From positions 1-53,098 of the IMG/VR virus record IMGVR_UViG_3300030090_000465: a stretch of DNA of 53,098 nt, one strand, 5' to 3'. The notes beneath the pieces are model-generated. The model saw only the letters and a program-made list of their open reading frames with translations, was not told the DNA's origin and made no database searches. Positions 3,754-36,700 of the stretch are shown one piece after another (the stretch's first letter is position 1; every line of letters starts with the position of its first letter). The stretch comes from a virus (lineage: Duplodnaviria; Caudoviricetes). Position numbers and translations under genes: made by a program.

Positions 3754-3764
3754 ACTATATTTCC

Positions 3765-3836: not shown

Positions 3837-3851
3837 AATAATTACCTCCAA

Positions 3852-3882: not shown

Positions 3883-3889
3883 GTAATAT

Positions 3890-4879: not shown

Positions 4880-4899
4880 TGTAATATCCTCTCAAAAAC

Positions 4900-5754: not shown

Positions 5755-5768
5755 AATACTTCCTCCAC

Positions 5769-5853: not shown

Positions 5854-5854
5854 G

Positions 5855-7637: not shown

Positions 7638-7639
7638 AA

Positions 7640-7795: not shown

Positions 7796-7807
7796 AATTA
7801 AGTCCTC

Positions 7808-8008: not shown

Positions 8009-8120
8009 CAGGCCATTCCTCTTTTATCCATTCGTTATAGCACAAAAATTTTCTTTGTGGATAAGACCAATACTTTCCTTGATAGCTAGGAGTCTCTTCC
8101 TCTAGCTTCACTAATTTCAT
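7959..8120 (-). CDS. Small hypothetical protein (53 aa, MKLVKLEEETPSYQGKYWSY...)
   Basis: ATGA overlap with the portal stop codon; manual translation. Confidence 0.55.
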   Translation of the reverse strand: MKLVKLEEETPSYQGKYWSYPQRKFLCYNEWIKEEWPDGSKEKDNQEKNIKSE

Positions 8121-8313
8121 CCTTCAACTGCTCTAGGCGTTCCAGAGAATTGATCCTCCCCTGACTGCGGAACATTTCCTGTTCCGATATTGCCCCCACC
8201 AGTACCCGTAACTCCAAGGTCTTGAGGTTGTTGAGGTGTTCCATCAGGGCTTCCCATAACTCCTTGTTGCTCGTTAGGAGTGAGAGGCGTTTCGCCAGTT
8301 GCTTGTCCAACAT
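8086..8313 (-). CDS. Helical protein overprinted on the portal C-terminus
   Basis: 75 aa, LWEALMEHL...EMFRSQGRINSLERLEQLKDEI resembles the small helical gene that typically follows the portal in such podoviruses. Confidence 0.6.
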   Translation of the reverse strand: MLDKQLAKRLSLLTSNKELWEALMEHLNNLKTLELRVLVGAISEQEMFRSQGRINSLERLEQLKDEISEARGRDS

Positions 8314-10306: not shown

Positions 10307-10321
10307 ATTAAAACCTTAAAC

Positions 10322-10356
10322 AACCACGAACGCCACCAAAGGCAGCGTCCATGATT
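10322..10356 (-). promoter_or_regulatory. 16-bp G.U-rich RNA hairpin (terminator or processing site)
   Basis: AAUCAUGGACGCUGCC-UUU-GGUGGCGUUCGUGGUU pairs fully only on the - strand RNA. Confidence 0.55.
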
Positions 10357-10369
10357 AAACAGTTATGAT

Positions 10370-10960
10370 CTATTGATCAGGTGTTGTACCCATGTGTAAG
10401 AACTGAACTAAGTAAGTCACAGTCGTTGCTGCCGTAGCAAGATTATTTGCTAATGGCGTAAGACGAGCATGAAGTGTTCTTGCACTAGCTGTATACAAAG
10501 TACCTGCTATAACAATAGCTTCACTTGTAGCAGGGCCACCAACCACACCTGCTGTAGTAGATGTACTTACAAATTGGTTTGCTGCATGACCATGTGAGTT
10601 TTGAATAATATACAACGGTGCATTAGCTGACCAAGTTACTGCTGAACCGCCATCATCTAAGATAGCTTTTTGATCAATAATTTGACCGCCACCTGCTGAA
10701 GTACCTAAATCAAAATCAACATCATCGCCTGAAGCTCCTGCTGTAACAATGTTACCTGCCGGAATAGCAATAAGGTTACGAATAATTGTATCAGCAGGTT
10801 GTGTAAAACTAACATCAGTATTTGTATCAGCCGTAACTGCAATAGTTCCTGTAGTTACAGAAGTCCAAGAATGTACCATATTCTCAGCCATCTCTCTTAC
10901 ATCACCTGTTCTAGCAGAGTTTCTGCCTGTATCTCTAACATTATATACTGGATTTGCCAT
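10370..10960 (-). CDS. Putative structural/decoration protein
   Basis: 196 aa, T/A/G-rich beta-type composition, in the late operon. Confidence 0.65.
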   Translation of the reverse strand: MANPVYNVRDTGRNSARTGDVREMAENMVHSWTSVTTGTIAVTADTNTDVSFTQPADTIIRNLIAIPAGNIVTAGASGDDVDFDLGTSAGGGQIIDQKAILDDGGSAVTWSANAPLYIIQNSHGHAANQFVSTSTTAGVVGGPATSEAIVIAGTLYTASARTLHARLTPLANNLATAATTVTYLVQFLHMGTTPDQ

Positions 10961-10996
10961 TGGTTATTTCCTCGCTTGAGTTATAAAATTATTTTA

Positions 10997-12673
10997 CTAA
11001 TAGCCAAATTCGCTATCAGCCGGGGTATAAGCCTGTTCCAAATGTAGATTTCTTATTCTGCTAAAAGAATCTTGTATTCTTGGTCTAGACATTATTAAGT
11101 AGCGCAGAGCATCATAAGCGTGATCTGGCGCGTGAGTATCAACATCTTCAGGGTTTGAACGATCCAGAGGAATACTTTGTAGCTCCCGTATCAGGTTAGG
11201 ACAAGTATTAAATATCTGTAGTCGTGGCCTACCGCTTTGTTGCACTTTTAAGTATTCGTGGATTTGTATCTTTCCTTGTATCCTATTTTTATCGGCCCTT
11301 CGTAGTTTATGACCTGCACGAATTAAGGACTCACCTACTGTTGGGCCTGTAGTTCCTGTCCTAGCCCACGCTGCCGTGTCTAAAACCCCTTGAACTGAAT
11401 AAGGATCACTTAATTCCATTTGAGTAATCCTATCTCCTAAATCTTCTCCCGTCAAACCTTTTTGATATAATTCTCTATAAATTATAAGAGTACCGTCTGA
11501 TGGGTCTACCGTTCCCCATACACAAGAACTTTCAGAAGCATATCCATAGTCAATACCTTTTGTACGTTCCCACGATATAGGAATTTCAAAAGGTGTAATA
11601 ACGTGTACGTCTTGTTCAAACTCGGTAAAGGCTGCTCCTTCATTAACATCCCAATTACCTTCTAAAAGCTGCTTCCTTTGAGTTGGAGGCAATGCTTTTA
11701 GCATTTCTTCATATCTACCATCTTCAGCTAAGTAAGGATTGTCATCTAGCCTAGCCGGAATAAACTTTCGAGTTAGATTGTCTTCTCCAGTAAACGATTC
11801 GTTAGGTGGATGTGGATCAACATATCTCTTCTTTACCCATGTAGCTCCAACACCACCGGGGTTTGCTGTACACCGCATATAGGGTGTAATCTCAGGGTCG
11901 GTCGTTCTTAGGCGAGAAGCGAGATAATTCCATCCAAACTCAGTGGGCAAGTGAGTAATCTCGTCAAAACCAATCCAAGAATAGGCTTGGCCTTGATACC
12001 GATAGACATCGGCATCTCGCTCTAAGAAGCCGAACTCTACTTTGGCTCCGCTTGGGAAGTTCCAAAGTTTTTCAACCTCTTTGTACTTACACCCCGGAAA
12101 TGCTTTGGGGTAAAGTTCCCTACTTTTATCTATGAGTTCTCTTAACTCTGGCATAGACCTTCTAAGTATTAACGCCCTGTGTGCTGCTCTGTGTGCAAAA
12201 CGTAGCGGGTCAATAAGCATAGCATAAGACTTTCCACCACCTGCTGCACCACCATAAAGTACATCACGCTCTGGTGCTGCTAAGAAGTCTGTTTGAGGCC
12301 CAGTGTTAGGTTTAAATATAACATTGTCATCGACTTCTTGCTTTAGAGCTTTAGGTACTTTATCTAGTATATCTTCAGTAACAACTTTATTAGTTGTTTT
12401 CTTTTCTAGTTTGTTTAATGTTTCTTTAGAAGCATTTAATGAATTTCGTTTAGCTTCTAATCTTTGTTTTAATTTTTCTGTTCTTCTTTCTTTATCTTTA
12501 ACTGCTCGTCTTGCTTTAATCTTTGCCTTAGTCTCAGAGTGGTAGTTATACCCTCTACCTTTAGACCCTTTGGGCCTTCCGGTCTTTTTACGGGGAGTAC
12601 CATCTTTTTTAAGTATGAAGTTCCCATCTTCATCAGTCAGGTAGTTCTGTGGATTCTCTTTCCAATCTTCCAT
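10997..12673 (-). CDS. terL: Terminase large subunit
   Basis: Walker A YGGAAGGGKS, Walker B WIGFDE, TANPGG coupling motif, nuclease GIDYG and DHAYDALRY. Confidence 0.96.
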   Translation of the reverse strand: MEDWKENPQNYLTDEDGNFILKKDGTPRKKTGRPKGSKGRGYNYHSETKAKIKARRAVKDKERRTEKLKQRLEAKRNSLNASKETLNKLEKKTTNKVVTEDILDKVPKALKQEVDDNVIFKPNTGPQTDFLAAPERDVLYGGAAGGGKSYAMLIDPLRFAHRAAHRALILRRSMPELRELIDKSRELYPKAFPGCKYKEVEKLWNFPSGAKVEFGFLERDADVYRYQGQAYSWIGFDEITHLPTEFGWNYLASRLRTTDPEITPYMRCTANPGGVGATWVKKRYVDPHPPNESFTGEDNLTRKFIPARLDDNPYLAEDGRYEEMLKALPPTQRKQLLEGNWDVNEGAAFTEFEQDVHVITPFEIPISWERTKGIDYGYASESSCVWGTVDPSDGTLIIYRELYQKGLTGEDLGDRITQMELSDPYSVQGVLDTAAWARTGTTGPTVGESLIRAGHKLRRADKNRIQGKIQIHEYLKVQQSGRPRLQIFNTCPNLIRELQSIPLDRSNPEDVDTHAPDHAYDALRYLIMSRPRIQDSFSRIRNLHLEQAYTPADSEFGY

Positions 12674-12890
12674 TCGTTATAATTTTCTTTAGCCCTGTAT
12701 GGCTTAAAGACCTCCCAGTTTTATGTTCTATCCAAAGACTTCCTTCTCGTAAAGAAAGTATACCCTCTTTTACCATAGAAGACACATTCTTTAAAACTTC
12801 TAATTGATTTTCTATAGGCTTTAAAGTTTTATTATCTTCAGATAGTTCATACCCAAATGGGATTGTACTACTCGATCTCCGCTTTTGCAT
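12633..12890 (-). CDS. Small DNA-binding protein resembling the recombinase domain of serine recombinases (no catalytic domain)
   Basis: TIPFGYEL...SLREGSLWI...LSHTGLKKII. Confidence 0.6.
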   Translation of the reverse strand: MQKRRSSSTIPFGYELSEDNKTLKPIENQLEVLKNVSSMVKEGILSLREGSLWIEHKTGRSLSHTGLKKIITNGRLERESTELPD

Positions 12891-13260
12891 CTATAATAAT
12901 CTCATCTTTAGCCGGGAGTATGAATAAACCACCTTCTACTTTGTGATTAACATCCATCCTTTCTTGCTTACCCAAGCCAGTTCTATCTAAGATAGTTTGA
13001 GCGGCTTGGAGCCTAATGTTAGCCTGTGGAATTGGATTATCGGATTCCATAACATCCACAAGTTTCATAGCTGCTTTAGGTGCGGATTGCGCGAGTATGT
13101 TAGAGGCTAGTTCGATTATTTCGTTTTTAAGTGCTTGTACGACTTGCCAATGTCCATTTTCGGAATATCCGGCTAACTTTGCAGCTTTCTTAGGATCACC
13201 CCCTGTTTCTATCAGATGGTCTAAAAAAGTCTGTTGCTTGACTGTTAATTCTTTTTTCAT
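12868..13260 (-). CDS. terS: Terminase small subunit
   Basis: Likely start MKKELTVKQQTFLD; AAKLAGYS HTH motif; upstream of terL. Confidence 0.8.
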   Translation of the reverse strand: MKKELTVKQQTFLDHLIETGGDPKKAAKLAGYSENGHWQVVQALKNEIIELASNILAQSAPKAAMKLVDVMESDNPIPQANIRLQAAQTILDRTGLGKQERMDVNHKVEGGLFILPAKDEIIIDAKAEIE

Positions 13261-13270
13261 AATACTGTAT

Positions 13271-13299
13271 ATTATACATAGTTTTACAAGGTTTGTCAA
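13271..13299 (-). promoter_or_regulatory. Consensus sigma70 promoter driving the late arm
   Basis: TTGACA (13299-13294), 17-nt spacer, TATAAT (13276-13271). Confidence 0.88.
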
Positions 13300-13328
13300 G
13301 TAAATAATGTAATAAAGTGTAACACCTA

Positions 13329-13357
13329 TTGACAAATTAAAGATTTATATGTATAAT
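13329..13357 (+). promoter_or_regulatory. Consensus sigma70 promoter, rightward
   Basis: TTGACA (13329-13334), 17-nt spacer, TATAAT (13352-13357). Confidence 0.88.
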
Positions 13358-13404
13358 ACTATAGAACCCACCGGGGTTCACTACATCCCATACAGCCCCG
13401 ACTC

Positions 13405-13790
13405 TTCCTCTAAAGACACTCTAGAGACTTTAGAGTTCCCGCCCTAACTGGTTGACACTCTAAAACCCTCCAAAATGTATTTGTATTAGTATATATATAT
13501 GGGGAGTGGGGTGGCCTCCTGCCTAGCCCTATAGAGTATAGGATATACTCTAGAGGGCTAAGAAATCTTCAAAGTCCTTGACTTTGAAAACTCTAGAACT
13601 CTCTGGAATCTTCCAAGATTCCAAAGAAACTTTAAAGTTCTCCGTAGACCTTCGGTCTAAACTTTCTAGTTTCCATAAATCTCAAGAGATTTATAAGTCT
13701 CTAAAGTAAACTTTAGAGTCTCTTGAATCTCAAAAGATTCAATAACTTAACAACTTATCCTTCCAACTTAGAAACTCTCTGGAGAGTTTA
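13405..13790. repeat. Non-coding array of degenerate palindromic octamers CT(C/T)TA(A/G)AG; probable genome-end/packaging region
   Basis: At least 12 variants (ctctaaag, ctctagag, ctttagag, ctatagag, ctttaaag, ctcaagag, ctctggag), plus a (TA)n tract and a G-rich tract at about 13490-13514. Confidence 0.65.
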
Positions 13791-13943
13791 TAAATTCTAC
13801 CTGATTCTTCGCATATTTTCCACACGATTTAACTCGTTAAATTCCCGCCAAAACGCACCAAGAATAAAGAGTTCCGGCTTAATCCTAAAAAATCGCCTGT
13901 TTTCAACGCATAATGCGTAGGAAAAATCATGCACATTTTTTTG

Positions 13944-13973
13944 TTGACAAAAATTTTTGGCTATGCCTTTAAT
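13944..13973 (+). promoter_or_regulatory. Candidate early sigma70 promoter
   Basis: TTGACA, 18-nt spacer, TTTAAT, upstream of the first early ORF. Confidence 0.5.
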
Positions 13974-14022
13974 AGAAACCGTCAACAACGACACCACAAC
14001 TTTTAAACTCAAGGAGTTTATA

Positions 14023-14184
14023 ATGAAAAAACTATTAAATAGCTACGCTAAAAATCCATTTAGTATTACTTTGATTCGAAAGATTGAAGCTCATGTTAGA
14101 AAACATCCGTTTTCTATAATGGGTTTGACCCAAGCAGAACAGGATGTTCTGGATGATGTTCTGCTTTTAGCAGAAAATATTTAA
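14023..14184 (+). CDS. Early hypothetical protein (53 aa)
   Basis: AAGGAG RBS before MKKLLNSYAK. Confidence 0.7.
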   Translation: MKKLLNSYAKNPFSITLIRKIEAHVRKHPFSIMGLTQAEQDVLDDVLLLAENI

Positions 14185-14207
14185 TTTTAATTATCTATCA
14201 ATGAAAA

Positions 14208-14251
14208 GAACTTTTAAGTCCCTTTACGTAGTGAAGGGACATAAAAGGTTC
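14208..14251 (+). promoter_or_regulatory. Long hairpin 1 (RNase III-like site)
   Basis: CTTTTAAGTCCCTTTAC-GTA-GTGAAGGGACATAAAAG. Confidence 0.6.
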
Positions 14252-14301
14252 CCAAAGTTTTCAACGGCAATTTCGCCACCAAATGAACCGGAGGTTCAAC
14301 C

Positions 14302-14850
14302 ATGTCAAATTTTGACTTCGCTACAATCGACTCAACCCGTCCTGCTTCTTTGAAGCAAATTTTTGCTGTAAGCAATAGGTTCTTAAAACCTGCTGCTAAA
14401 ACTTTAGGAGTTTCTGGAGTGCAGGTTAATAAAATCTTACGGCCCAGAATAACTGCCGTTATTCAGAGCATGGAGCCAAATCATGGAATGATTCAGAAAT
14501 GGTTCAAGTCACAGACTTGTCCCAAGAAAATCTTGGACTTAATCAAGACCGATGGTCTTGGAGATAAGCCAAAGGCTTCCAAGAAGTCAACGACTTCTAC
14601 CAAGCCAAAGGCTACCAAGAAAGTTAAAACTTCTCCCAAGCCAAAGGCTACTCCGAAAGTTTCAGAGGAGCCAGAGGCTCCTAAGTCGGCTTCTGGCAAC
14701 AAGTCTTGGAAGGCTACTTCCAAGTCTGACGAGTTTAGTCAAAGACTAACTATTCTGGAAGCCATGCAGTCTCAAACATCGGAAGATGTTCAAAGTATTA
14801 AATCTGCAATGGAATCCCTTGTAGCTTCGCTAGGCGGTCTTAACTCTTAA
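14302..14850 (+). CDS. Early protein with a histone-like K/P/A/S/T-rich segment
   Basis: 182 aa, GGAGG RBS, KPKASKK/KPKATKK/KPKATPK repeats, C-terminal coiled coil. Confidence 0.8.
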   Translation: MSNFDFATIDSTRPASLKQIFAVSNRFLKPAAKTLGVSGVQVNKILRPRITAVIQSMEPNHGMIQKWFKSQTCPKKILDLIKTDGLGDKPKASKKSTTSTKPKATKKVKTSPKPKATPKVSEEPEAPKSASGNKSWKATSKSDEFSQRLTILEAMQSQTSEDVQSIKSAMESLVASLGGLNS

Positions 14851-14859
14851 ATCTTAACT

Positions 14860-14880
14860 GCCCCCTTCGGGGGGCTTCTT
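14860..14880 (+). terminator. Hairpin terminator (UUCG tetraloop)
   Basis: GCCCCC-TTCG-GGGGGC-TTCTT. Confidence 0.75.
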
Positions 14881-14891
14881 GGAGTTTTATT

Positions 14892-15098
14892 ATGTTTATA
14901 TATTTTAAATTAATTTTATGTTTGTTAAATCCTTCTCTCCGGTTAGTTAGATATAATAACTATAAGTTTTTATCGGCTTCAGATTTGTATAAAGTTGACA
15001 GATATTCAAGATCTAAAAAAATATTATCTATTCATATAGTTAAATCTACTGGGGATAACTCCCACAAAGATTGGTGTTTTAGACCTATAAAATTTTAA
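14892..15098 (+). CDS. Early hypothetical protein
   Basis: 68-aa ORF with GGAG RBS. Confidence 0.5.
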   Translation: MFIYFKLILCLLNPSLRLVRYNNYKFLSASDLYKVDRYSRSKKILSIHIVKSTGDNSHKDWCFRPIKF

Positions 15099-15111
15099 AT
15101 AAATATTTAAA

Positions 15112-15157
15112 TAGTCTTTTAAGTACCTTCAGGTAGTGAAGGTACTTAGAAAGACTA
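15112..15157 (+). promoter_or_regulatory. Long hairpin 2 (RNase III-like site)
   Basis: TAGTCTTTTAAGTACCTTCA-GGTAG-TGAAGGTACTTAGAAAGACTA. Confidence 0.65.
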
Positions 15158-15178
15158 CAAACACTTTGGAGAGCGATT

Positions 15179-15376
15179 ATGGCTACACAAGTTGTATTAG
15201 TAAAAAAAGTTTATTGGAATGGTTCGCTTCAAGGTTATAAACCTATGAATCGTTATGCTACTCAAGTTTTAGATTTACTAGGGCGAGGCCGTAGTAAGTT
15301 TACTGAACAAAATATAAGAGATTTAGAAAATCTTGAATTTGTAATTCAAACTGCTCAAGAGGGTCTTTATGAATAA
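15179..15376 (+). CDS. Early hypothetical protein
   Basis: 65 aa, GGAGA RBS. Confidence 0.7.
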   Translation: MATQVVLVKKVYWNGSLQGYKPMNRYATQVLDLLGRGRSKFTEQNIRDLENLEFVIQTAQEGLYE

Positions 15377-15539
15377 TAATAATTTAAACGATCAAATCAT
15401 AGAGTTTTTTAAATCTGATGGTAAAATAACTAAAGTTAAGGAGGGCGAGAGATCGCTTCCAGAATACCTTTGGTATAAAGAAACTTATCCTAAAAACTAT
15501 AAACTTAGACGAACCAATAGGAGTGCCAGAAATGTCTGA
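15369..15539 (+). CDS. Small protein with a SutA-like motif (56 aa)
   Basis: Manual translation MNNNNLNDQIIEFFKSDGKITKVKEGERS...; overlaps both flanking genes. Confidence 0.6.
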   Translation: MNNNNLNDQIIEFFKSDGKITKVKEGERSLPEYLWYKETYPKNYKLRRTNRSARNV

Positions 15540-15903
15540 ATATTTATTTAAAGATACTATTGATACAAGTAATTTCAAAGAGTATAAAAGTTTATTGCTC
15601 AGTCCTAAATCTGGAGATAAATTCTCTATAGATATTAATATTAAAAATGGTCAAAGATATTATAATGTTACTTGGGGTCGAAAATGGGCTACGTTTCGAC
15701 AGTCCTTTGGCTTTGGAGTTATTAAAATTAGCGTGGCTAAAGCCAGAGTATATTTAAAAAATTACTATTGGCGTAAAGCTGCTAGTGATGCCTTTGGCAG
15801 ATTTTGTGTAACTCAGCCATATTACCTTGATGAAACTAAAAATTATCATAAAGATAAGCCAAAGCGTAGAAGGTTACCTAAAAGATGGAGGGAGGATTAT
15901 TAA
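15532..15903 (+). CDS. Early hypothetical protein
   Basis: AGGAG RBS; contains a VTWGRKWATF motif. Confidence 0.7.
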   Translation: MSEYLFKDTIDTSNFKEYKSLLLSPKSGDKFSIDINIKNGQRYYNVTWGRKWATFRQSFGFGVIKISVAKARVYLKNYYWRKAASDAFGRFCVTQPYYLDETKNYHKDKPKRRRLPKRWREDY

Positions 15904-15979
15904 TATGGATAATCTAGGGGCTATGGGAATGGCCGTAGCAGTTTTGTTTGTAGTATTTATGGTAGTTAATATATTATTT

Positions 15980-16035
15980 TAGAAGTCTTTAAAACCCTTC
16001 TAACGAAGTGTAGAAGGGTTATTAAAGACGTTCTA
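15980..16035 (+). promoter_or_regulatory. Long hairpin 3 (RNase III-like site) upstream of the tRNA
   Basis: GTCTTTAAAACCCTTCTA-ACGAAGTG-TAGAAGGGTTATTAAAGAC. Confidence 0.6.
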
Positions 16036-16052
16036 CGGCTCGGTCAAACCGA

Positions 16053-16138
16053 GGACAGGTATGCAAGTGGTTAAAGCAAACAGTCTGTAAAACTGTCACC
16101 TTTAGGTTTCGTAGGTTCAAATCCTACCCTGTCCACCA
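16053..16138 (+). tRNA. tRNA-Tyr(GUA)
   Basis: Acceptor GGACAGG/CCTGTCC plus A-CCA; anticodon arm ACAGT-CTGTAAA-ACTGT; long variable arm; T arm GTAGG-TTCAAAT-CCTAC. Confidence 0.95.
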
Positions 16139-16211
16139 CTTAATGGAAGTAGGAGAGCAACTATGGAAGATTTAGACCATGATACTTTAATGGAATTAAT
16201 GGAGGAAATAT

Positions 16212-16370
16212 ATGATAAATTTTATTAAGGAATTAAATTTATGGTGTGAAGATCACTTTAATCATTTTGGTTTTTATCCTGTAGAATTTGAATATGAGGG
16301 GGTAGTTTATAACGATGAAGTCTTTTGGCCTTTGATTAATTTTAAAAAAATTAATAGGAGAAATATATGA
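16212..16370 (+). CDS. Small hypothetical protein (52 aa, ...FGFYPVEFEYEG...)
   Basis: GGAGG RBS; ATGA overlap with the next gene. Confidence 0.65.
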   Translation: MINFIKELNLWCEDHFNHFGFYPVEFEYEGVVYNDEVFWPLINFKKINRRNI

Positions 16371-16564
16371 TTAGTTTAAGACATGGTAGTCCATATGATA
16401 GAGGTGCTGCTGATAGTTATTATGGTAGACCTAAAGAACCTCATTACTATGAGGGAGCTAGTTACACCTCAAATAAAATAACAGATTTAAATACTAAAGA
16501 AATTAGTGACTACAATAAAGGTTATGATGACCAAGAAAAATCTGGAGTTAAAAAACAATATTAA
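16367..16564 (+). CDS. Conserved phage hypothetical protein
   Basis: RHGSPYDRGAADSYYGR motif. Confidence 0.75.
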   Translation: MISLRHGSPYDRGAADSYYGRPKEPHYYEGASYTSNKITDLNTKEISDYNKGYDDQEKSGVKKQY

Positions 16565-16579
16565 TATAGGAGAACCACA

Positions 16580-16849
16580 ATGGGTAAAGTAATAGAATGG
16601 CGTAGTGTTAAACATAAAAAAGATAGAAAAGAAGCTCAACGAGTTGTTAATGAAATTCATACTGCTAAAACTGCAATAGCTATGATAATGGGTAAGCTTG
16701 AAGTTGGTTTGCTTGAAGGTTCTTTAGCTATGCAAATTTTAGTAAATAAAATTATAGAAGATCAAGAATGGGATAAAGAAACATTTGATCTTGCAGCTAG
16801 TGAGTATAAAGTAGTAATTAATAAAGATGATGATGAGGAGTTACATTAA
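16580..16849 (+). CDS. Hypothetical protein
   Basis: 89 aa, AGGAG RBS. Confidence 0.7.
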   Translation: MGKVIEWRSVKHKKDRKEAQRVVNEIHTAKTAIAMIMGKLEVGLLEGSLAMQILVNKIIEDQEWDKETFDLAASEYKVVINKDDDEELH

Positions 16850-16850
16850 C

Positions 16851-17078
16851 ATGAAAACCTACATCCATGTAAACCAACACAATATTAGAGCTAATAATAA
16901 AGGGGCTAACAAGCCTGTACTAACTGTAAAAAATTATAAACAAAATATTAAATGTAATGAAGTTAAGTTTACTAATGGACGAGTTGTTTATAGTCCTGAC
17001 AAACCATTGTCATGTGGGGCTAAAGTATGGATACAAACTGAAGACCCTGTAGAAATAGTTGGAGATAGTTATGTCTAA
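16851..17078 (+). CDS. Conserved phage hypothetical protein
   Basis: IHVNQH...YSPDKPLSCGAKVWI motif. Confidence 0.75.
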   Translation: MKTYIHVNQHNIRANNKGANKPVLTVKNYKQNIKCNEVKFTNGRVVYSPDKPLSCGAKVWIQTEDPVEIVGDSYV

Positions 17079-17241
17079 AGAAAAGAAAAAGTGTGTATCT
17101 TGTAGCCAAACTCAAGGCTTAGTAGTTTCTCAAAGTACTGAAGCCGGAGAAGTTTTATGGTGTGCAAGATGTTACACAGATTATTTAAGAAGAACTTCTA
17201 ATAAACGGAGAGTTCGTTATGTTTCTCAACCACAATTTTAA
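17071..17241 (+). CDS. Small Zn-ribbon protein
   Basis: CVSC...CARC; GGAG RBS. Confidence 0.6.
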   Translation: MSKEKKKCVSCSQTQGLVVSQSTEAGEVLWCARCYTDYLRRTSNKRRVRYVSQPQF

Positions 17242-17860
17242 AATAAATTCTTTTGCTCAAAGAAACGCTGATAACTTAGCTGTAGTTATACTAATGGTTT
17301 CATTAAGTATACAACAGAAATGGTCAGCAGTTGGTGATATGTTGTCATCAGTTAAAGAATCAAAGAAAGATTCTATTTATCTTTGGGGTAACAAAGCAGC
17401 AACTTATGATTATATATCTACACATAAACATTTTATGTATGGTCAAATGATGGCTGCATTGAATTCACATTACTCCAATGATCTTAAAGCATTTTCACTT
17501 ATGAAAATATTTTTAAAGATAGATGGTTTGGGTATAGCTAAAGCCGGATTTGTTTGTCAATTAGTATCTGGTTTAGTTGGCTGTATGGATGTTCATAATA
17601 TAAAAACTTATGGTGTCGATCCTAAGTCATTGGTTTTAAACAAAAATTTAACTAGCAAGCGAGGTATTCAAAACAATGAAACTAAAATAAAACAATACAT
17701 AAAACTATGCCATGACTACGGCACTGAAAATCTTTGGAACTCTTGGTGTTCAATGATAGCAGACAAGTATCCTAAAGATTTTATTGATGCCCATCATGTG
17801 TCTGAATTACATTACACATACTTAACTGGAGACTATAATGTTTCTGAAAGAACCATTTAA
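17219..17860 (+). CDS. HhH-GPD superfamily DNA glycosylase-like protein
   Basis: HhH motif IDGLGIAKAGF followed by a catalytic-type Asp in GCMDVHN. Confidence 0.6.
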   Translation: MFLNHNFKINSFAQRNADNLAVVILMVSLSIQQKWSAVGDMLSSVKESKKDSIYLWGNKAATYDYISTHKHFMYGQMMAALNSHYSNDLKAFSLMKIFLKIDGLGIAKAGFVCQLVSGLVGCMDVHNIKTYGVDPKSLVLNKNLTSKRGIQNNETKIKQYIKLCHDYGTENLWNSWCSMIADKYPKDFIDAHHVSELHYTYLTGDYNVSERTI

Positions 17861-29510: not shown

Positions 29511-30471
29511 AGATTACTATAAACCTTTTGATCATCCATGGATGTTTGATTATTACGTTCAACAAAATCAAATGATATGGTTGCCAGAAGATGTTCCGCT
29601 TCACAATGATGTGAAAGATTGGCAAGAGATGGATGACACGGAAAAGAATTTACTTACACAAATATTTAGATTGTTTACACAATCAGATGTAGATGTAGCA
29701 TCAGGATATATAGATAGATACATGAGGGTCTTTAAAAAGCCTGAGTCTAGGATGATGATGTCTTCGTTTGCTAACATGGAGTCAATACATCAACACGCTT
29801 ACAGCCTACTGTTAGATACTGTAGGGATGCCTGAGATTGAGTATAAGGCATTTGCTGAGTATGAGGCTATGGCTGACAAGCATGAATATATAAGTAGCTC
29901 TCCATTAAAAATAAATAACAAAGAATCTATTGCTAAAAACTTAGCGATCTATTCAGCGTTTACTGAAGGGCTTCAACTGTTTAGTAGCTTTGCAATACTT
30001 TTAAACTTCCCCCGATTCGGTAAGATGAAAGGTATGGGGCAGATAGTTACTTATAGTATTCGGGATGAGTCCCTCCATGTAGAAGCAATGACTAAACTCT
30101 TTAGAGAATTTATGCAGGAAAACATTAGCCTTTGGACAGATGACTTTAAGAAAGAAATATATACTGTTTGTAGGCAGATGGTTAAACTGGAAGATAAGTT
30201 TCTGGATTTAGTATTTCAAATGGGAGACATACAAGGTCTTACTAAATCTGAAATGAAAGAATATATAAGATATATAGCAGACAGGAGACTGTTGCAGCTA
30301 GGATTAAAAACTAACTTTGGGGTAAAGGATAACCCTATTGATTGGATAGATGATGTACTAGGTGTAGAACATCAAAACTTTTTTGAAGGCCGAGCAACAA
30401 CTTATATGAAGGGCGGTCTAAAGGGCAGCATGGAGTCTGTCCAATTTAAAGGAATAGCAGTAGAGGGGTAA
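29491..30471 (+). CDS. nrdB: Ribonucleotide reductase class Ia, beta subunit
   Basis: FTQSD, ESIHQHAY (radical Tyr), EGLQLFSSF, DESLH, NFFE. Confidence 0.95.
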   Translation: MSLLGTRDYYKPFDHPWMFDYYVQQNQMIWLPEDVPLHNDVKDWQEMDDTEKNLLTQIFRLFTQSDVDVASGYIDRYMRVFKKPESRMMMSSFANMESIHQHAYSLLLDTVGMPEIEYKAFAEYEAMADKHEYISSSPLKINNKESIAKNLAIYSAFTEGLQLFSSFAILLNFPRFGKMKGMGQIVTYSIRDESLHVEAMTKLFREFMQENISLWTDDFKKEIYTVCRQMVKLEDKFLDLVFQMGDIQGLTKSEMKEYIRYIADRRLLQLGLKTNFGVKDNPIDWIDDVLGVEHQNFFEGRATTYMKGGLKGSMESVQFKGIAVEG

Positions 30472-30476
30472 TAAAT

Positions 30477-30704
30477 ATGGACAGCAAAGAAGAAGGGAAT
30501 CTTGTTTCTTTTAGAGTGTTTTTAGCTAGAGATGGAAATATTTTATCTGAGTTTAAATATCTACCAATAGAAGATATAGGTAAAGTATTTCCAGAAAATG
30601 AAATCCCTATTATACAAAAAGTAATTAAAGAAGGATTTCTTAAACTAGAGGGACTACACGATTACATAGAAAAAGAAGTTAAAAACTTAACGACAATTAC
30701 TTAG
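30477..30704 (+). CDS. Hypothetical protein (last gene of the + arm)
   Basis: 75-aa ORF converging on the - arm. Confidence 0.65.
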   Translation: MDSKEEGNLVSFRVFLARDGNILSEFKYLPIEDIGKVFPENEIPIIQKVIKEGFLKLEGLHDYIEKEVKNLTTIT

Positions 30705-31026
30705 TAGCTTTGTGGTGCATAAATGCGGTAGCCCCCATGTATGTACCGACAATGCCACACATAGAAAAATAAAACAGCCCCAACAAATCTGACAGAGCGT
30801 TTACTCTACTATCAGATATTAGGGGCGTAAATAAAACTACCGTAGTTACTACCATGATAATGATAGCTAACCAAGCCATCATCTTTTGAGCCTCAGACTT
30901 TTCTTCTCTTAGTTCTAAGTCTACCATTTCTTTAGCTCTATCTAGTTCCTCATCACTGATGATGCCATCATTGTTTAGATCAAACTTCTCGTACTTAGAC
31001 TGTAGCTCTAGTTTCTTTGGAGACAT
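30697..31026 (-). CDS. EF-hand-containing two-TM membrane protein (holin-like)
   Basis: DLNNDGIISDEE loop plus two hydrophobic helices. Confidence 0.65.
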   Translation of the reverse strand: MSPKKLELQSKYEKFDLNNDGIISDEELDRAKEMVDLELREEKSEAQKMMAWLAIIIMVVTTVVLFTPLISDSRVNALSDLLGLFYFSMCGIVGTYMGATAFMHHKATK

Positions 31027-31028
31027 TG

Positions 31029-31208
31029 TTAGTGCGTATTCTCCTTACCATCAAATATTTTATGAGGTTCTGACATAGCTATAAATTGAGCTTCAAATAT
31101 TTCTCTGTAAGTTTCAAAGTCTACTATGTTTAGTCCTCTAGCAGCGTGTGTTCTAGCATATATCTGGTATGCTGCTCCTAATTGATCTTCCGTGTACAGT
31201 GCTAACAT
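31029..31208 (-). CDS. Small hypothetical protein (59 aa, MLALYTEDQL...)
   Basis: Manual translation; AGGAG RBS; fills the gap exactly. Confidence 0.65.
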   Translation of the reverse strand: MLALYTEDQLGAAYQIYARTHAARGLNIVDFETYREIFEAQFIAMSEPHKIFDGKENTH

Positions 31209-31209
31209 A

Positions 31210-31686
31210 TTATTCTCCTACTCCCATTACGATCTTAACTATAAATACTAGAAATCCTATTCCTATTACAACTACAGAACCTATTAGTAACATATCTAAA
31301 AGAAATTTTTTATGTTCTGCTTGTCTTCTAGCTACGACTAGTCTTCTTTGTCTTTCTTTTTGTCTAGCTCTCATCATGGATTTATAAACATCTCCTTGAC
31401 CAGAATAAACAAATAGTTCTCTTAATTGTTTCTCTAATTCTTTTGCTTTATGTTCCGCTAGTGCTACCTCAAGTGCATGGGCTTCTACAGACTGAGCATC
31501 AAACATTTTTTTCCCTATGGGAGTATGATCTGAATCTGCTTTGGCTTTATCTATTTTGTCTTTTGCATCAAAGAATTGTGCAAACTGAGATGATAACTCT
31601 TGGGTGTCCTTACCTAATGCAAGACCTTTTTTTATTACTGTAATTGCTTTTGAGGCAGCAGCAATGGCTACTGTTACTTCTATCAT
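31210..31686 (-). CDS. Coiled-coil protein with a C-terminal TM helix
   Basis: 158 aa. Confidence 0.7.
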   Translation of the reverse strand: MIEVTVAIAAASKAITVIKKGLALGKDTQELSSQFAQFFDAKDKIDKAKADSDHTPIGKKMFDAQSVEAHALEVALAEHKAKELEKQLRELFVYSGQGDVYKSMMRARQKERQRRLVVARRQAEHKKFLLDMLLIGSVVVIGIGFLVFIVKIVMGVGE

Positions 31687-31703
31687 TACTGCCCCCTTTA
31701 AAT

Positions 31704-31886
31704 TTAATATCTTCTAAATAAATCTTCAGCAGCACAGTGATCCATAGCTCTGCAAATCCTTACATTTTGCATATATAATTGTTGATCCATCCAATTCCAC
31801 TCAGGATAATCTGACATTTGCATACTGACTTCGCTTAAAGAACATCCTGTAAGTGATAGTAAAATTATTATTAATAGTCTTCTCAT
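31704..31886 (-). CDS. Small lipoprotein
   Basis: Signal peptide with lipobox LTG-C; CxxxxxC near the C-terminus. Confidence 0.7.
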   Translation of the reverse strand: MRRLLIIILLSLTGCSLSEVSMQMSDYPEWNWMDQQLYMQNVRICRAMDHCAAEDLFRRY

Positions 31887-32086
31887 TGTCCTGCCATCAT
31901 CCTCCTATCGACATTACAATAACTAATGTTATCGCACCCACCTGAGTTTAAAATATTTTGATTGCTTGGAATATTACGCATAAAAATATCTTGGTTTCTG
32001 GCATCTTGCATGGCCCAATCTTGAGCAGACCTTTCCGGCAAACTACTGCAACCAGTTATAACTAAAGCAATAAGTAAGTATCTCAT
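31883..32086 (-). CDS. Small lipoprotein
   Basis: Lipobox ITG-C; CxxxxxC near the C-terminus. Confidence 0.7.
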   Translation of the reverse strand: MRYLLIALVITGCSSLPERSAQDWAMQDARNQDIFMRNIPSNQNILNSGGCDNISYCNVDRRMMAGQ

Positions 32087-33366
32087 TGTGCTACTAATCT
32101 CCTGTTGTTTCTTTCGGTTAGCATTTCCTGATAACCTTCTTCATCAAGATGAGTTACTGCTATCCAAGCATGAGTCATTTCATCTCCTGTTCTACTGCCT
32201 CCATAAACCCACTGATCTGCATCAGGGTTGTTAGGATTATCGTCAGTGTTGTCATACCATTGTTTAAGAACTAATACTGCCCCTGTTGGAATCAAAGGTG
32301 CAAAGTCTGGATCATATATGTGACTGTGATGCCATGTTGCACTCCAGTTAGATACCTGACTAATTTGCTCAGTTATTCCAGTATCAGGGTAAAATATTTC
32401 AAAGCTTGCTGCGTTCATTCTTAGGTGTCCATGAGGTTGCCATGAATCAATGCGAACAGGGTGATCAAAGGAGTGGAATCCCTGAGTCATGTGATAACCA
32501 TGAGGAGGAATAACAATATCATCTTGATCGCTTATCCTGTAAAGCTTGAGGTCTTGAGCATATGTAAGTGCCTTAGATTCCTCTGGAGAGTATAGCCATA
32601 GTCCTATCTCTACAACATTATCTTCAATAATAGTTCCGGGTGCTATAGCTCCTAAACCACCGGGAAACATATGAATGTCCCAAGCTATCTCAGAGTTAGC
32701 AGGTATGGTACGACAGACACCTTCAGGTACTATCTCGCCCCATTTACCCATAGCATACTCTGTCAACATCCCGTATCTTTCACCATCAACATTAACGGAG
32801 CTATTGGCATGATGCACTACACTCTTAGCATCGCCTCTTGGCTTAACTTGGATAGCTTTAATACATCTATCCTCTGTCAACCCACTAGCTACATTGTGTT
32901 TGTGCCATAGGTCATTACCACTGGCAGGTATATCTATAGGAGTAGAAGGAATAACCATTGTAGGCTCTCCAAACTCTCCGTAGAAGTTCCACTGATCGGG
33001 GTCTGAAAGGGCCGGAGGTTGTACTACAACATCTGTATTTCCATACTCTGATCCGGTATCTACCCACTCTACTATCGTGGCTATATCGGCCTCTGAGAGC
33101 CTCCAATCACCATGTAATTCCTGTATTCCTATACCCTGATCATAGGCATATGGCGGCATCTCTCTGTTAGCAACTTTAAGTTGTATCAAAGGACTCCACG
33201 GTCTGACTTGATCATAGGTTTCGAACTGCATTGGGCCAATCCCACCATCACGGTGACACACAACACAATTATTATTTATTATTTCAGCTACATCATCTAC
33301 ATAAGTAGGTGCTCCATGAGCCATAGAGCTACACAACATAGCTCCAACTAGTAGTAAATATCTCAT
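32083..33366 (-). CDS. Secreted cytochrome c / type II copper monooxygenase (PHM/DBH-like) fusion
   Basis: Signal peptide; CVVCH heme-c motif; VVHH + IH (CuH), HGH + EM (CuM) ligands. Confidence 0.85.
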   Translation of the reverse strand: MRYLLLVGAMLCSSMAHGAPTYVDDVAEIINNNCVVCHRDGGIGPMQFETYDQVRPWSPLIQLKVANREMPPYAYDQGIGIQELHGDWRLSEADIATIVEWVDTGSEYGNTDVVVQPPALSDPDQWNFYGEFGEPTMVIPSTPIDIPASGNDLWHKHNVASGLTEDRCIKAIQVKPRGDAKSVVHHANSSVNVDGERYGMLTEYAMGKWGEIVPEGVCRTIPANSEIAWDIHMFPGGLGAIAPGTIIEDNVVEIGLWLYSPEESKALTYAQDLKLYRISDQDDIVIPPHGYHMTQGFHSFDHPVRIDSWQPHGHLRMNAASFEIFYPDTGITEQISQVSNWSATWHHSHIYDPDFAPLIPTGAVLVLKQWYDNTDDNPNNPDADQWVYGGSRTGDEMTHAWIAVTHLDEEGYQEMLTERNNRRLVAQ

Positions 33367-33367
33367 A

Positions 33368-33736
33368 TCAATAACTCCATATCCACGGTCTAGGCCGTTT
33401 GGGTGAATTTTCTATGTCATCTAAATGTATAAATCTACTGCTGCCTTTTTGGTTAATACCAATACCTGTGAACTCTCCAGACTTCATAGCAGCTTCTATA
33501 AGATTATATGCTTTCTCTCCAGAGACTCCAATATCTATTGCGTGTCCTGTTGCGTGTGCGCCCGGAACTTTTTTACGAGCTTCTATAGGATGTTCTGGAC
33601 ATCTATAGCCACTATTAACAGGGAAAGGGAAACCTAGTTGCTCTCTAAGGACTTCTACTTTCTTCATAAAGTTTTCGTCTATGTTACTCTTACCACAGTG
33701 AGAGCATTTTAGTTCATCTTCTGTGAAGTATTTCAT
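33368..33736 (-). CDS. Endolysin, peptidase M15A family
   Basis: CSHCG, SGYRCPEH, H..GHAID, FIHLD. Confidence 0.88.
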   Translation of the reverse strand: MKYFTEDELKCSHCGKSNIDENFMKKVEVLREQLGFPFPVNSGYRCPEHPIEARKKVPGAHATGHAIDIGVSGEKAYNLIEAAMKSGEFTGIGINQKGSSRFIHLDDIENSPKRPRPWIWSY

Positions 33737-36700
33737 TGGTTGTTCCTTTCTTTAAATGCTTGTTCTGCCCTTCCTAAACGATCCATAGTTTTAGATATAA
33801 AATCTGGAGGAACATCTCCCATATTTGTTATAAGATCACGCCCCCTTTCTAAAGGAATATTATTTTGCATTTTATATTTAGTTCCTTTACCATCTTTAAA
33901 ATCAACTAAACTATTTACTATATTAGTATATTTAAATTCTTCTCTAGGAATACCTCTTCTTCTAGCATCTATGCCAAAGCTATTGTTCCATCTATCTCCA
34001 TGTTCTGTTCTTGGGTCTTGCCCCAAGTCTATTTGTTCTTTTGCTGAAAGAAGTTCTCTGCCTTGAACAAGAGGAGTAGTTAAATAAGCATTATCATATC
34101 CTAATAAAGCGTGTTGAATTGCATTGAAAGCTTCTTCATTTCCAGATATACCCATTGCAACATTATCTCTATTAAAGTTTCTAACTTCTTGTTCACTTAA
34201 AAATCTTGCAGGTACTTTGTATCCTCTTTCATCTTTAACAGGTATGGGATTACCTTCTTTATCTTTTGTCATTTCCCATTCAGCATATCTAAGTCTTTGA
34301 TCTTCTTTTAATAAACCTTTATCTACTAATTCATTATTTAAATTTACTGCTTCTATAAAAGTATTCATTTGTTTTTCAGGCCCACGCCCTATTAATTTTG
34401 CTAGTGCATTTTTTATACGTCCACCAACACTAAACATTTTTCTATCTTCTTCATCTATATAAGCTTCACCTGCTTGCTCGTTATATGGAAAACCTGTTAG
34501 CTTATCTATACGTTCATCAGGTTCTACAGGAGCTTGAGGTACGTTATATACTTCACCGCCTATAGCAAAAGAGCCTCTAGCTTCTCTTGCTTTTTCTTCA
34601 GCTTGTTGTTTTTCAATTAAATTTTGAGTTGCTCCAAAACCAGTTGGATTTTCAGTGGGTTCAAAATTTAAAGGTACAGTAAGATATTTTGTGGCTGTTC
34701 TTGTTAATTCATCTAATTTATCTTGTGCCTGTTCTTCAAGTATTTCATCTGCAAAAGGAGTGCCTCTATCAAAAGATTGTTTTATAAAATTTAATACATC
34801 AGTTGTATCTAAAAATCTACCATCTTCCATAGACATTAAAAGTGTGGTACTAGCTCCAGAATCTTTTAATACTTGATAGGCTGTTGTAGACCTTAGTTCT
34901 AAAGGAGAAAGTTCTTCTTCTCTACCCTCTCTACTTGCAGTAAAAGCTTGTCCATATGTACTGTCTTCATCTAGTAATGACTGAACAGCTTGATATGTAG
35001 AATATAAATCTTGGGCTGCTTTATATTGTAACTGTAGATTTGTATCTACTTGTTCAATAATATCATCTGCATTTTCTCTAAAATTTGGATAAGAGGGGTT
35101 AATAAAATTTGATCTAAGTTCTCTATACTCTCTATATTTAAAACGTAAAGCTTCTACAGGATCAACTTCTTGAAATCTTATACCTAATAAAGAAGCTACT
35201 AATTCTCCTTGCCATTCTGGTAATTTACCTGAGTATTCATTTACATTACCTGCTGCTATATTATATAAATCATAAGCATCTTCTATAGTTCCGGGCATAA
35301 AAGGAGTTAGTATACTTTCAACTATTGAAGCAACAGGATTTTCTCCTATACTAAACGCTCTTGAACCATCTGGTCTTACGCCATTATTAGTTACCGAATA
35401 TTTAGCATCTAAAAGACTTTTGGCAAGCATTGATTCAGAAACAAAAGGTTCTAAAAGACTACCAACAAAATTTATACCTGCATCTGTTAATACTTTATCT
35501 AATTCTTCGCCTTGTAACTTTCCTGTTCTAACATCTTCTAATGCTTCCATTAAAGGCGCACGAATAGTATTATAAGAATTATAGTTTGTAGTATCTTGTG
35601 TATAAAACTTATCTCCTACTCTAACAATATTTCTAGTTGCTCCTCCATTCCACGGAGTTTCTGTAACTTTGTGAATATTATCTTGTTGTTCATCAGATAA
35701 ACCATAAGTTAAAGCACTAGCCGTTGCTGCTCCTTGCCAAGAACCCATAGAAAGCATATAGCCTGATAGTCTTTGAAGACCCCTTTCTTTTAATACTGGA
35801 TTACCTGACGCAATTTCTTTACTAGCTTCTGTAATTATATTATAACTTGTTCTCCATATTTCAGCAGGAAAAGAAACAAAGTTACCCATTGGTAAAAATC
35901 TTAAAGTTTTAATACCTGCCGGAACTCTATCATAATTAGGAAAAGTATTTTTTACTTTTCTCGCAGCTTCTTGTTCTAAAACATCTAGTGGTTCATTTGG
36001 AAATGCTTTTTGTAAAGTTTCTAATTCTCTTTGAAAATTATTCATTTTAAAAAAATCATCAGTAGCCATATAAACTTCTGTAGCACCATCAATAGTTTTA
36101 TCTAGTACTTGACCACCATAAGGAATTTCTCTTAATTTACTAAACCAATTATCAGCAGTAGATTCCTCACCTACTCTTAATAAATCTTTAAATTCACTTA
36201 AACGAACATTAGTATTAATAACACCTAGTCTTTGATATTTTTCATATTGAGCATCTAAAGCTTCATCTCCAGACTTTAATATTTTATTCCAAAGAACAGC
36301 GTTATTATTAACACCACCTTGAAAGGGCCATACACCATTAGCTAATCCAAACTGCACTCCACCTGCTGCGTTTCTAGCCTGAGTAGCTATGCTTAAAACT
36401 GTTTTAGATTGTTGTGAAGTACCTTTTGCAGTTGCTAAGTTCTTAAAAAAACCACTATCTATAATGCCACCGGGATTCCAAGCATTATTATTTTGCAAAC
36501 TAGCTGCTACTTCTGGTGTTGTCCACTTTCCATTTAACGGAGAGTTTGTCATATTTATTTGTGTTGTAAAAACTTCTGTATCTCTAGCTATTCCATCATC
36601 AAAAATATATTTACCATTAGCTATTTCATTTAAATTACTATGGAATCTACCTACCTCATAAAACTTAGACATTTTTTCTACAGTCTTTACAATATTTAAA

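Follow-up and report, generated by a model that had tools for sequence, protein, structure and literature searches.

Peptidylglycine α-hydroxylating monooxygenase (PHM) and dopamine β-hydroxylase (DBH) are textbook animal enzymes, associated with neuropeptides and noradrenaline. What purpose could a gene of this kind serve at the end of the late operon of a phage? The question is raised by a marine phage, the IMG/VR virus record IMGVR_UViG_3300030090_000465 (Duplodnaviria; Caudoviricetes), whose whole stretch of 53,098 bp is referred to here as the window, and by its gene CytPHM, which encodes a monoheme cytochrome c domain followed by a two-copper monooxygenase of the PHM/DBH fold. The window is a genuine phage genome, as indicated by its rating as a complete record (CheckV completeness of 100 in IMG/VR) and by hallmark genes for the large terminase (TerL), portal, major head protein, DNA polymerase A, primase/helicase, and ribonucleotide reductase. 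We are highly confident in the molecular identity of CytPHM, namely a secreted enzyme combining heme c with a PHM-type two-copper center and encoded by a real, selected phage gene. On balance, we favor the explanation that it works as a monooxygenase in the periplasm, has an electron input of its own, and is carried as an auxiliary metabolic gene in which the ancestral hydroxylase chemistry is preserved during infection. A role in small-molecule catabolism is a more tentative part of this explanation.

The open reading frame (ORF) of CytPHM is uninterrupted over 427 aa, and its ATG start codon (33364–33366) lies one base beyond the TGA stop codon of an endolysin gene (33368–33370). At the other end, the stop codon overlaps the start codon of the small gene lp67 as ATGA (32083–32086), and lp67 in turn overlaps lp60. 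The gene start and the motifs named in the original prediction are all present: CVVCH occupies residues 34–38 of the translation, VVHH residues 183–186, IH residues 231–232, HGH residues 312–314, and DEM residues 395–397. The N-terminus, MRYLLLVGAMLCSSMAHGAP, reads as a basic residue followed by a hydrophobic stretch, and such a leader is recognizable by sequence reading in the query and in all 21 alignment rows listed. Model confidence is low in residues 1–20 (pLDDT of 50–62), and the conserved mature part begins at Thr21. Of the signal peptide proposed at the outset, the hydrophobic leader therefore stands, and its function is retained as a prediction.

An alignment of 41 full-length homologs, reaching down to 26% identity, yielded an AlphaFold2 model with a mean pLDDT of 89.4 and a pTM of 0.86. 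When this model was compared with the PDB by Foldseek, the top 31 listed rows were all human DBH or rat PHM (E 4e-13 to 1e-9), and the next match had an E value of ~1e-5. VIA-align, run against 48,161 representative chains, superimposed model residues 132–412 on PHM (1sdw) with a Z score of 19.7 and an rmsd of 3.5 over 248 residues; a second PHM entry scored 18.7 and DBH 17.0, while the next row fell to 8.9. The relationship is also detected by sequence alone, since a profile of the 41 sequences finds both DBH (E 8.4e-8) and PHM (E 2.5e-6) and sets the HH, H, and HxH residues of CytPHM on the copper histidines of these enzymes. With the single sequence as the query, no family was found in PHROGs, NCBIfam returned only a spurious SurA match (E 0.11), and phmmer against the PDB returned only cytochrome c6 (E ~0.6). 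The cytochrome part (residues 18–108) resembles the monoheme cytochrome PccH at 20% identity with a Z score of 7.0, which is in a range that the tool calls common.

The residues expected to bind heme and copper are strongly conserved. Cys34, Cys37, His38, Met70-Pro71-Pro72, His185, His232, His312, and His314 are invariant in the 41 homologs, and His186, Glu396, and Met397 are at least 90% conserved. His185, His186, and His232, which the profile aligns with the HH and H of PHM and DBH, are the candidate ligands of the CuH site. His312 and His314, aligned with the HxH of the animal enzymes, are the candidate ligands of the CuM site, to which Met397 would contribute the methionine; this equivalence follows from its position inside the structurally aligned range. 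Met70 is the putative axial heme ligand. The double β-sandwich of the PHM/DBH type, the copper-site histidines, and the N-terminal c-type heme motif put forward in the original prediction are all borne out, with Met397 as the probable methionine of the ligand set.

The family to which CytPHM belongs is large. A word-indexed search found 2,583 proteins at E ≤ 1e-3, and an exhaustive representative search found 8,713 at the same threshold, 192 of them at E ≤ 1e-30. An N-terminal AhpC/TSA peroxiredoxin-like domain was detected in six of the ten long homologs scanned, and one of these distant homologs (P0215) passes the Pfam model PF03712 with 26.5 bits against a cut-off of 23. The neighbors in the ESM Atlas are "cytochrome c domain-containing protein" clusters, 70% and 53% viral, and clusters farther away carry PF03712 and PF01082. 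In the source databases, the protein is named "mono/diheme cytochrome c family protein" or "hypothetical protein".

The gene is not the product of a chimeric join with host DNA, for which read mapping had been suggested as a check. Runs from 10 studies contain part or all of the stretch, and four of these runs were aligned on the window, the evidence consisting of contigs rather than raw reads. Contigs from three studies bridge both junctions of CytPHM: the boundary with the endolysin gene is covered by contigs of runs X2 (33229–33571), X5 (33229–33600), and X9 (33062–34600), and the boundary with the lipoprotein gene by contigs of X2 (31945–32241) and X9 (31295–32979). Separately, a contig from an RNA library (run X20) spans 31896–32336, which is no proof of transcription.

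A relative of CytPHM is present at 75 loci in IMG/VR, 36 of which share the arrangement of the window, in which the gene for ribonucleotide reductase beta lies on the far side in convergent orientation. The upstream side of these 36 loci is mosaic: an endolysin gene precedes the enzyme gene in 18, a giant virion protein gene abuts it directly in 16, and two have no upstream sequence. The locus L001 illustrates this mosaicism. Its enzyme is 99% identical to that of the window, while the identity of the giant virion protein falls to 33%; no endolysin gene separates the two in L001. An abrupt mosaic break thus coincides with the 5′ end of the enzyme gene. To estimate selection, the viral copies were dereplicated at 97.5% identity to 36, made up of the window copy together with 22 further podovirus copies and 13 copies of another kind, found in T4-like phages. 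All ten ligand residues are invariant in the 36 copies. Nei–Gojobori dN/dS values, approximate at this level of divergence and counted only for pairs with dS of 0.05–3, have a median of 0.070 for podovirus pairs (206 pairs, maximum 0.143), 0.096 for 75 pairs of the T4-like kind, and 0.092 for 24 cross pairs, most cross pairs having been dropped as saturated. CytPHM is a fixed trait of a whole phage lineage under strong purifying selection, and the description of it as very unusual cargo is not supported.

The second set of viral copies, 72–77% identical to CytPHM of the window, lies on low-GC contigs with other neighbors. One of these, L076 (PBPT01000016.1, 335 kb, locus 1–17245), is labeled as part of a Candidatus Neomarinimicrobiota metagenome-assembled genome (MAG). 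The enzyme gene is surrounded there by genes for a clamp loader (E 8e-76), thymidylate synthase (E 1.6e-69), PhoH (E 2.3e-75), and a virion protein, and the MAG also contains two Gp23 major-capsid matches. Most likely, the contig represents either a giant phage that was misbinned or a region rich in phage DNA. The T4 major capsid family PF07068 was found in three of the five records or genomes searched, including a 230-kb IMG/VR record rated 66% complete. These neighbors and the capsid family place the second set in large T4-like phages. A Marinimicrobia host or donor, as the label of L076 would imply, was considered and rejected, the region being T4-like phage DNA. The large T4-like records carrying the enzyme gene include L041 (IMG/VR, 230,036 bp, 66% complete), L057, L046, and L054. 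In L041, a gene for a TauD-type taurine catabolism dioxygenase (phrog_24590, E 3.9e-71) lies 0.6 kb downstream of the enzyme gene, bringing two oxygenase genes close together in one giant phage. In L043, L045, L046, and L047, a divergent second cytochrome c–PHM-like paralog of 409 aa and 26% identity (e.g., L046:7256–8485) directly follows the first and overlaps its end, in place of a lipoprotein gene.

To trace the origin of the gene, close relatives were collected from GTDB with one genome per species, using patterns that find only close relatives. Nearly all of the 65 loci obtained belong to Pseudohongiellaceae or to unclassified Pseudomonadales/Gammaproteobacteria (63–77% identity); the others are four from Gemmatimonadota (58–60%) and the mislabeled L076. 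From 195 full-length ORFs in the viral and cellular loci together, 23 below 55% identity were dropped, and the remaining 172 were dereplicated at 97.5% to 139 rows plus the window. In the resulting 140-row maximum-likelihood tree (quick search, SH-aLRT supports only, rooted on Gemmatimonadota), all 38 viral rows form one clade (98), and the podovirus copies within it are monophyletic (100). The viral clade is sister (99) to four gammaproteobacterial MAG rows of 53–57% GC (L077, L082, L083, and L133), and this pair is nested inside the remaining gammaproteobacterial diversity. The viral copies thus form one clade within Pseudohongiellaceae-like gammaproteobacterial paralogs. In a 42-row subset, the supports were 99 and 100, and an approximately unbiased (AU) test marginally disfavored the grouping of all gammaproteobacterial rows (log-likelihood difference of 15.2, p 0.036).

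On our reading of this tree, the gene was captured once, from a Pseudohongiellaceae-like cell, and then spread among phages. Its base composition fits a foreign origin: CytPHM has a GC content of 42.6% and a third-position GC content (GC3) of 31%, compared with 35.6% GC for the window and 11–29% GC3 in six other genes. The original prediction had the gene captured from the host. The donor lineage can now be named as Pseudohongiellaceae-like, but equating the donor with the host is not upheld. The donor rows have 53–57% GC against 35.6% in the phage, the nearest cultured relatives are SAR11 phages that do not carry the gene, and the gene also resides in T4-like phages. Because of the GC gap and the kinship with SAR11 phages, Pseudohongiella is unlikely to be the present host.

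These relatives are the Pelagibacter phages HTVC115P, HTVC103P, and HTVC104P, with 65–67% identity in TerL and 48–49% in DNA polymerase; HMO-2011-type phages form the second-closest cultured group. In a cultured-phage collection of 50,697 records, tblastn of CytPHM gave no match, nor did tblastn of lp60 or megablast of 20 kb of the window, whose own record may be excluded from that collection. At the end of the late operon, in a position equivalent to that of the CytPHM module, HTVC115P (MN698247.1, 17410–18762) has an Hsp20 family gene and four small genes, and in this region the two genomes have only ribonucleotide reductase and a few structural genes in common. In this phage group, then, the site occupied by CytPHM takes variable cargo.

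The steady companion of the enzyme gene is a small lipoprotein gene. An iterated profile search (jackhmmer) started from lp60 and lp67 and run over all ORFs of 35–130 aa in all loci assembled a family of 55 members, including lp60 and lp67 of the window, and every member lies in a viral locus. Among genes with at least 300 nt of downstream sequence, a lipoprotein gene follows within 450 nt in 43 of the 62 viral copies, as opposed to none of 106 cellular copies. The 19 viral genes that do not have one include a podovirus subclade, the T4-like loci with a second paralog instead, and L041, in which the lipoprotein gene is 1.8 kb away. The gene order CytPHM–lp67–lp60 recurs in the T4-like loci L076 and L066. 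In 18 aligned members, the lipobox cysteine is invariant, and one asparagine and a Cys-x5-Cys pair are at least 90% conserved, while Met and His residues are not; a function of lp60 as a copper chaperone was rejected on this ground. A predicted co-fold of CytPHM (residues 19–427) with lp60 (residues 15–60) scored 0.00 with an uncertain lp60 fold, which speaks neither for nor against binding. A whole-database search with lp60 found only six close, unnamed proteins, the word-based method being weak for a 60-aa query.

Since the lipoprotein accompanies the enzyme into T4-like genomes without a nearby lysis gene, the moving unit is the enzyme with its lipoprotein or lipoproteins, not the enzyme with lysis genes. 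The enzyme and one or two small, predicted disulfide lipoproteins constitute a phage-specific module, present in many unrelated ocean phages, that is probably not a member of the lysis cassette, and the placement of the gene in a lysis region, made from the window, is not supported by the wider comparison. The endolysin is a neighbor at only half of the syntenic loci. The features of the module and its surroundings are collected in the table below.

Features of the module, its neighbors, and other annotated elements of the window
Feature	Position	Strand	Description	Evidence
CytPHM	32083..33366	-	monoheme cytochrome c domain (~residues 21-110) and PHM/DBH-fold two-copper monooxygenase (~residues 132-412)	ORF, model, profile, invariant ligands
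lp67	31883..32086	-	67-aa predicted lipoprotein, lipobox ITGC, paralog of lp60	jackhmmer family membership
lp60	31704..31886	-	60-aa predicted lipoprotein, lipobox LTGC, Cys-x5-Cys pair, C-terminal AExLF motif	family search and alignment
M15 peptidase endolysin	33368..33736	-	adjoins CytPHM upstream; variable neighbor, outside the module	PF08291 E 4.6e-12; phrog_894 E 1.6e-29
p158, p59, p109	30697..31686	-	three small genes ending the late operon	phrog_32327 and phrog_27150 (both function unknown); synteny
p158	31210-31686	-		
p59	31029-31208	-		
p109	30697-31026	-	109 aa, phrog_27150; two hydrophobic segments by eye	EF-hand_5 E 6.5e-4, below cut-off, N-terminal
Structural-module protein	1197-2807	-	lysin-like matches	see text
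Structural-module protein	5855-7027	-	lysin-like matches	see text
tRNA-Tyr	16053-16138	+	anticodon GTA, single, early region	

The three genes that end the late operon are kept together with the CytPHM module in the podovirus lineage, and p109 is possibly a holin-like or calcium-binding membrane protein. Two proteins of the structural module have lysin-like matches, to the phrog_5107 "amidase" (E 2.5e-83) and, in a C-terminal segment, to tape-measure or endolysin families; a virion-associated wall-degrading activity besides the M15 endolysin may therefore exist.

The genomic setting of the cellular homologs provides a guide to the ancestral function. In cells, the gene is usually one of two to approximately six tandem paralogs (127 family members in 61 loci); such arrays are exemplified in Pseudohongiellaceae by L089, L105, and L109, among the cellular loci L077–L140. 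Because the paralogs stand in tandem, many substrates are suggested. In 44 of the 65 loci, the gene lies beside that of c1, a secreted protein of ~300 aa with a C-terminal CC-W motif and no Pfam family. Its model (pLDDT of 83.9) comprises two β-sandwich domains, which match only generic Ig-like or macroglobulin-type β-sandwiches (best Z score of 10.5 over 109 aa). Recurrent neighbors encode a PQQ dehydrogenase, a GMC oxidoreductase with its small subunit, an MFS transporter, an NHL-repeat protein (13 of 65 loci), an AMP-binding acyl-CoA ligase, a STAND NTPase, a TAT-exported sulfatase, a cupin, a thioesterase, and a β-lactamase-fold protein. The NHL-repeat neighbor recalls the PAL partner of animal PHM. 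Judged from these gene contents, the cellular setting is one of periplasmic oxidative catabolism. The adjoining PQQ and GMC dehydrogenases, sulfatase, MFS transporter, and acyl-CoA ligase point to a first-step hydroxylation of dissolved organic compounds in cells. The Pseudohongiellaceae arrays thus point to an unrecognized family of periplasmic hydroxylases for dissolved organic matter.

Considering the structural and genomic findings together, we propose the following scheme. CytPHM would be exported by the Sec pathway, and its CVVCH motif would be loaded with heme c by the cytochrome c maturation system of the host. The heme domain may accept single electrons from periplasmic c-type carriers of the host and pass them to CuH (His185, His186, and His232), taking the place of ascorbate. 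CuM (His312, His314, and Met397) would bind O2 and then carry out C–H hydroxylation of a periplasmic substrate. By analogy with PHM and DBH, two one-electron transfers to CuH would be coupled with O2 activation and hydrogen abstraction at CuM. The gene appears to have been taken once from a Pseudohongiellaceae-like gammaproteobacterium and to have spread, under strong purifying selection, across HTVC103P/HMO-2011-like podoviruses as well as large T4-like phages. The small lipoproteins would have been gained in phages, where they most likely tether the enzyme or help it at a membrane, possibly standing in for the two-domain β-sandwich partner c1 of cells. We take CytPHM to be a phage auxiliary metabolic gene, as it is carried by a bona fide phage genome, has cellular homologs, and is conserved under purifying selection. 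The cellular context suggests small organic molecules as the substrate class, with a peptide or envelope target as the main rival.

Several observations weigh against this scheme. The phages carry a single enzyme of what is a multi-gene island in cells, so a catabolic benefit would need further host enzymes, and no homolog of c1 was found in the window (best tblastn E 0.2). A scan of 30300–34200 found promoters and terminators no richer than in shuffled sequence; CytPHM, at the end of the late operon without a promoter signal of its own above these controls, would have little time for a metabolic pay-off. The PHM residues that hold the peptide carboxylate do not appear to be present in CytPHM, which speaks against a peptidylglycine substrate. 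Queried alone, the sequence matched no Pfam copper-monooxygenase model (PF01082, PF03712), and its cytochrome c scores lie below the cut-offs (18.9 bits versus 27 for PF13442 and 19.8 versus 21.3 for PF00034). The dN/dS estimates are approximate because dS is near saturation (medians of 1.1–2.6), and the AU test, marginal and applied to a group chosen after the tree was seen, lends moderate support. Finally, a lipoprotein partner confined to phages fits an envelope-directed role at least as well. In such a role, the enzyme and its lipoproteins would hydroxylate or cross-link the co-encoded lipoprotein or an envelope component of the host, possibly to block superinfection, alter a receptor, or ready the envelope for release. 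The lipoprotein genes are phage-specific, following 43 of the 62 viral copies but none of the 106 cellular ones; the reading frames of enzyme and lipoprotein overlap at the stop and start codons, the lipoprotein genes travel with the enzyme gene between unrelated phage types, and PHM itself acts on peptides. However, the 19 viral copies with no lipoprotein gene within 450 nt indicate that the enzyme can be kept alone. Moreover, the mature lipoprotein is poorly conserved except for two cysteines, one asparagine, and the C-terminal motif, late expression suits exclusion poorly, and no target is known. We therefore regard this modification of the envelope as unlikely, and give the same weight to its fuller form, a phage-invented system in which a PHM-type enzyme powered by the respiratory chain modifies the co-encoded lipoprotein or a surface or periplasmic protein of the host. 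If true, it would be the first protein- or peptide-modifying enzyme of the PHM class outside eukaryotes, and a mobile module common to abundant ocean podoviruses and giant T4-like phages.

It is less probable still that the fold has been turned to other chemistry, with the heme and copper centers acting as an oxidase, in peroxide or superoxide handling, in copper handling, or as an electron sink. There is no known substrate, and the AhpC/TSA domain of six of the ten long homologs is a hint that the wider family may perform peroxide or thiol chemistry. The complete and separately conserved CuH and CuM sets, including the candidate methionine, are nevertheless the signature of oxygen-activating monooxygenases, and the tandem arrays in cells suggest substrate diversification. 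An accessory function in lysis, in which the oxygenase would weaken the envelope and lp60 and lp67 would be outer-membrane spanin-like lipoproteins, is very improbable. The local arrangement invites it, the M15 endolysin stop codon preceding the gene by one base and two lipobox proteins and small membrane proteins following. This arrangement is disrupted at the loci where the giant virion protein gene abuts directly (16, against 18 of the 36 with an endolysin gene upstream), and in the T4-like L076 the three-gene module lies between thymidylate synthase and PhoH. In addition, we saw no N-terminally anchored protein that could serve as the inner-membrane spanin, the hydrophobic stretch of p158 being C-terminal by eye. 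That CytPHM arose by chimeric assembly with host DNA, or is a captured gene in decay, has a negligible probability: its deviating GC content would fit, but contigs from three studies bridge the junctions, 36 loci are syntenic, dN/dS is ~0.07, and the ligand residues are invariant. A working periplasmic monooxygenase kept as an auxiliary metabolic gene remains the explanation that we favor. Because the gene is fixed, shared with T4-like phages, and under strong purifying selection despite its need for host heme maturation and copper, it must matter during infection.

We know of no prokaryotic or viral member of the PHM/DBH superfamily with a described function. A literature search found no description of a phage or bacterial member of this cytochrome c–PHM family and no pairing of "auxiliary metabolic" with "ascorbate-dependent monooxygenase". 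Among the literature naming PF03712, Cu2_monoox_C, or the family description, the titles found were all on eukaryotes. In the parts seen of a review containing both "PHM-like" and bacteria, the former refers to DBH subdomains and the latter to antibiotic targets. The main text of the HTVC103P preprint contains no mention of "cytochrome", "monooxygenase", or "auxiliary", although genes of related environmental contigs might appear in its supplements. Nothing relevant was found for Pseudohongiella in combination with phage, or for pelagimyophage in combination with cytochrome. The remark in the original prediction that bacterial cytochrome c fusions are largely uncharacterized still applies to the cellular family. 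CytPHM is thus a member of the PHM/DBH superfamily that has its own cytochrome c and forms a phage auxiliary module with a private lipoprotein. The fused cytochrome c suggests a way to drive this enzyme class from the respiratory electron pool without ascorbate. The gene itself is fixed in a phage lineage whose kin include some of the most abundant phages of the ocean, and giant T4-like phages carry it as well.

Similar to CytPHM, PHM, the catalytic core of PAM (PDB 1sdw and 1phm), is a two-domain β-sandwich with the ligand pattern HH...H / HxH...M. Its two separated copper sites and O2-dependent C–H hydroxylation are presumably shared by CytPHM, while the sequence identity is only 11–14%. PHM uses soluble ascorbate, where CytPHM has an N-terminal cytochrome c domain with a covalent heme. 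Unlike PAM, CytPHM is prokaryotic and viral, predicted to be periplasmic, and without a fused PAL lyase. DBH/tyramine β-hydroxylase (PDB 4zel) is the best match of CytPHM in both Foldseek (E 4e-13) and the profile search (E 8.4e-8), and it also has an extra N-terminal domain before the catalytic core. In DBH, however, this is a DOMON domain, accompanied by a dimerization domain and the use of ascorbate, whereas the extra domain in CytPHM is a c-type cytochrome. Within the cellular cytochrome c–PHM-like family, which includes the AhpC/TSA-fused forms, CytPHM is a full-length member, 63–77% identical to the Pseudohongiellaceae copies and 26–40% identical to distant ones. The cellular genes occur in tandem arrays with c1, while the phage copies are single, except for the second paralog in some T4-like loci, and are accompanied by small lipoproteins.

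The proposed electron path also has an analog. The heme domain of cellobiose dehydrogenase (CDH) feeds single electrons to the copper of lytic polysaccharide monooxygenases (LPMOs), so that, as we envisage for CytPHM, a heme domain delivers electrons to a copper oxygenase. The two systems differ in their unrelated folds, in the heme b of CDH, in CDH being a separate protein, and in the mononuclear copper site of LPMOs. Among the genes carried by phages and other viruses, viral amoC and cyanophage plastocyanin also encode redox metalloproteins. The pmoC gene of large freshwater phages, cited in the reference list of PMC11480375, is a phage-encoded copper metabolic gene. Like CytPHM, these three are redox metalloprotein genes that were taken from cells and kept by phages. 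Their products are subunits or carriers that plug into a complex of the host, whereas CytPHM is an enzyme complete in itself, in which a built-in domain would admit the electrons, and has no known host pathway.

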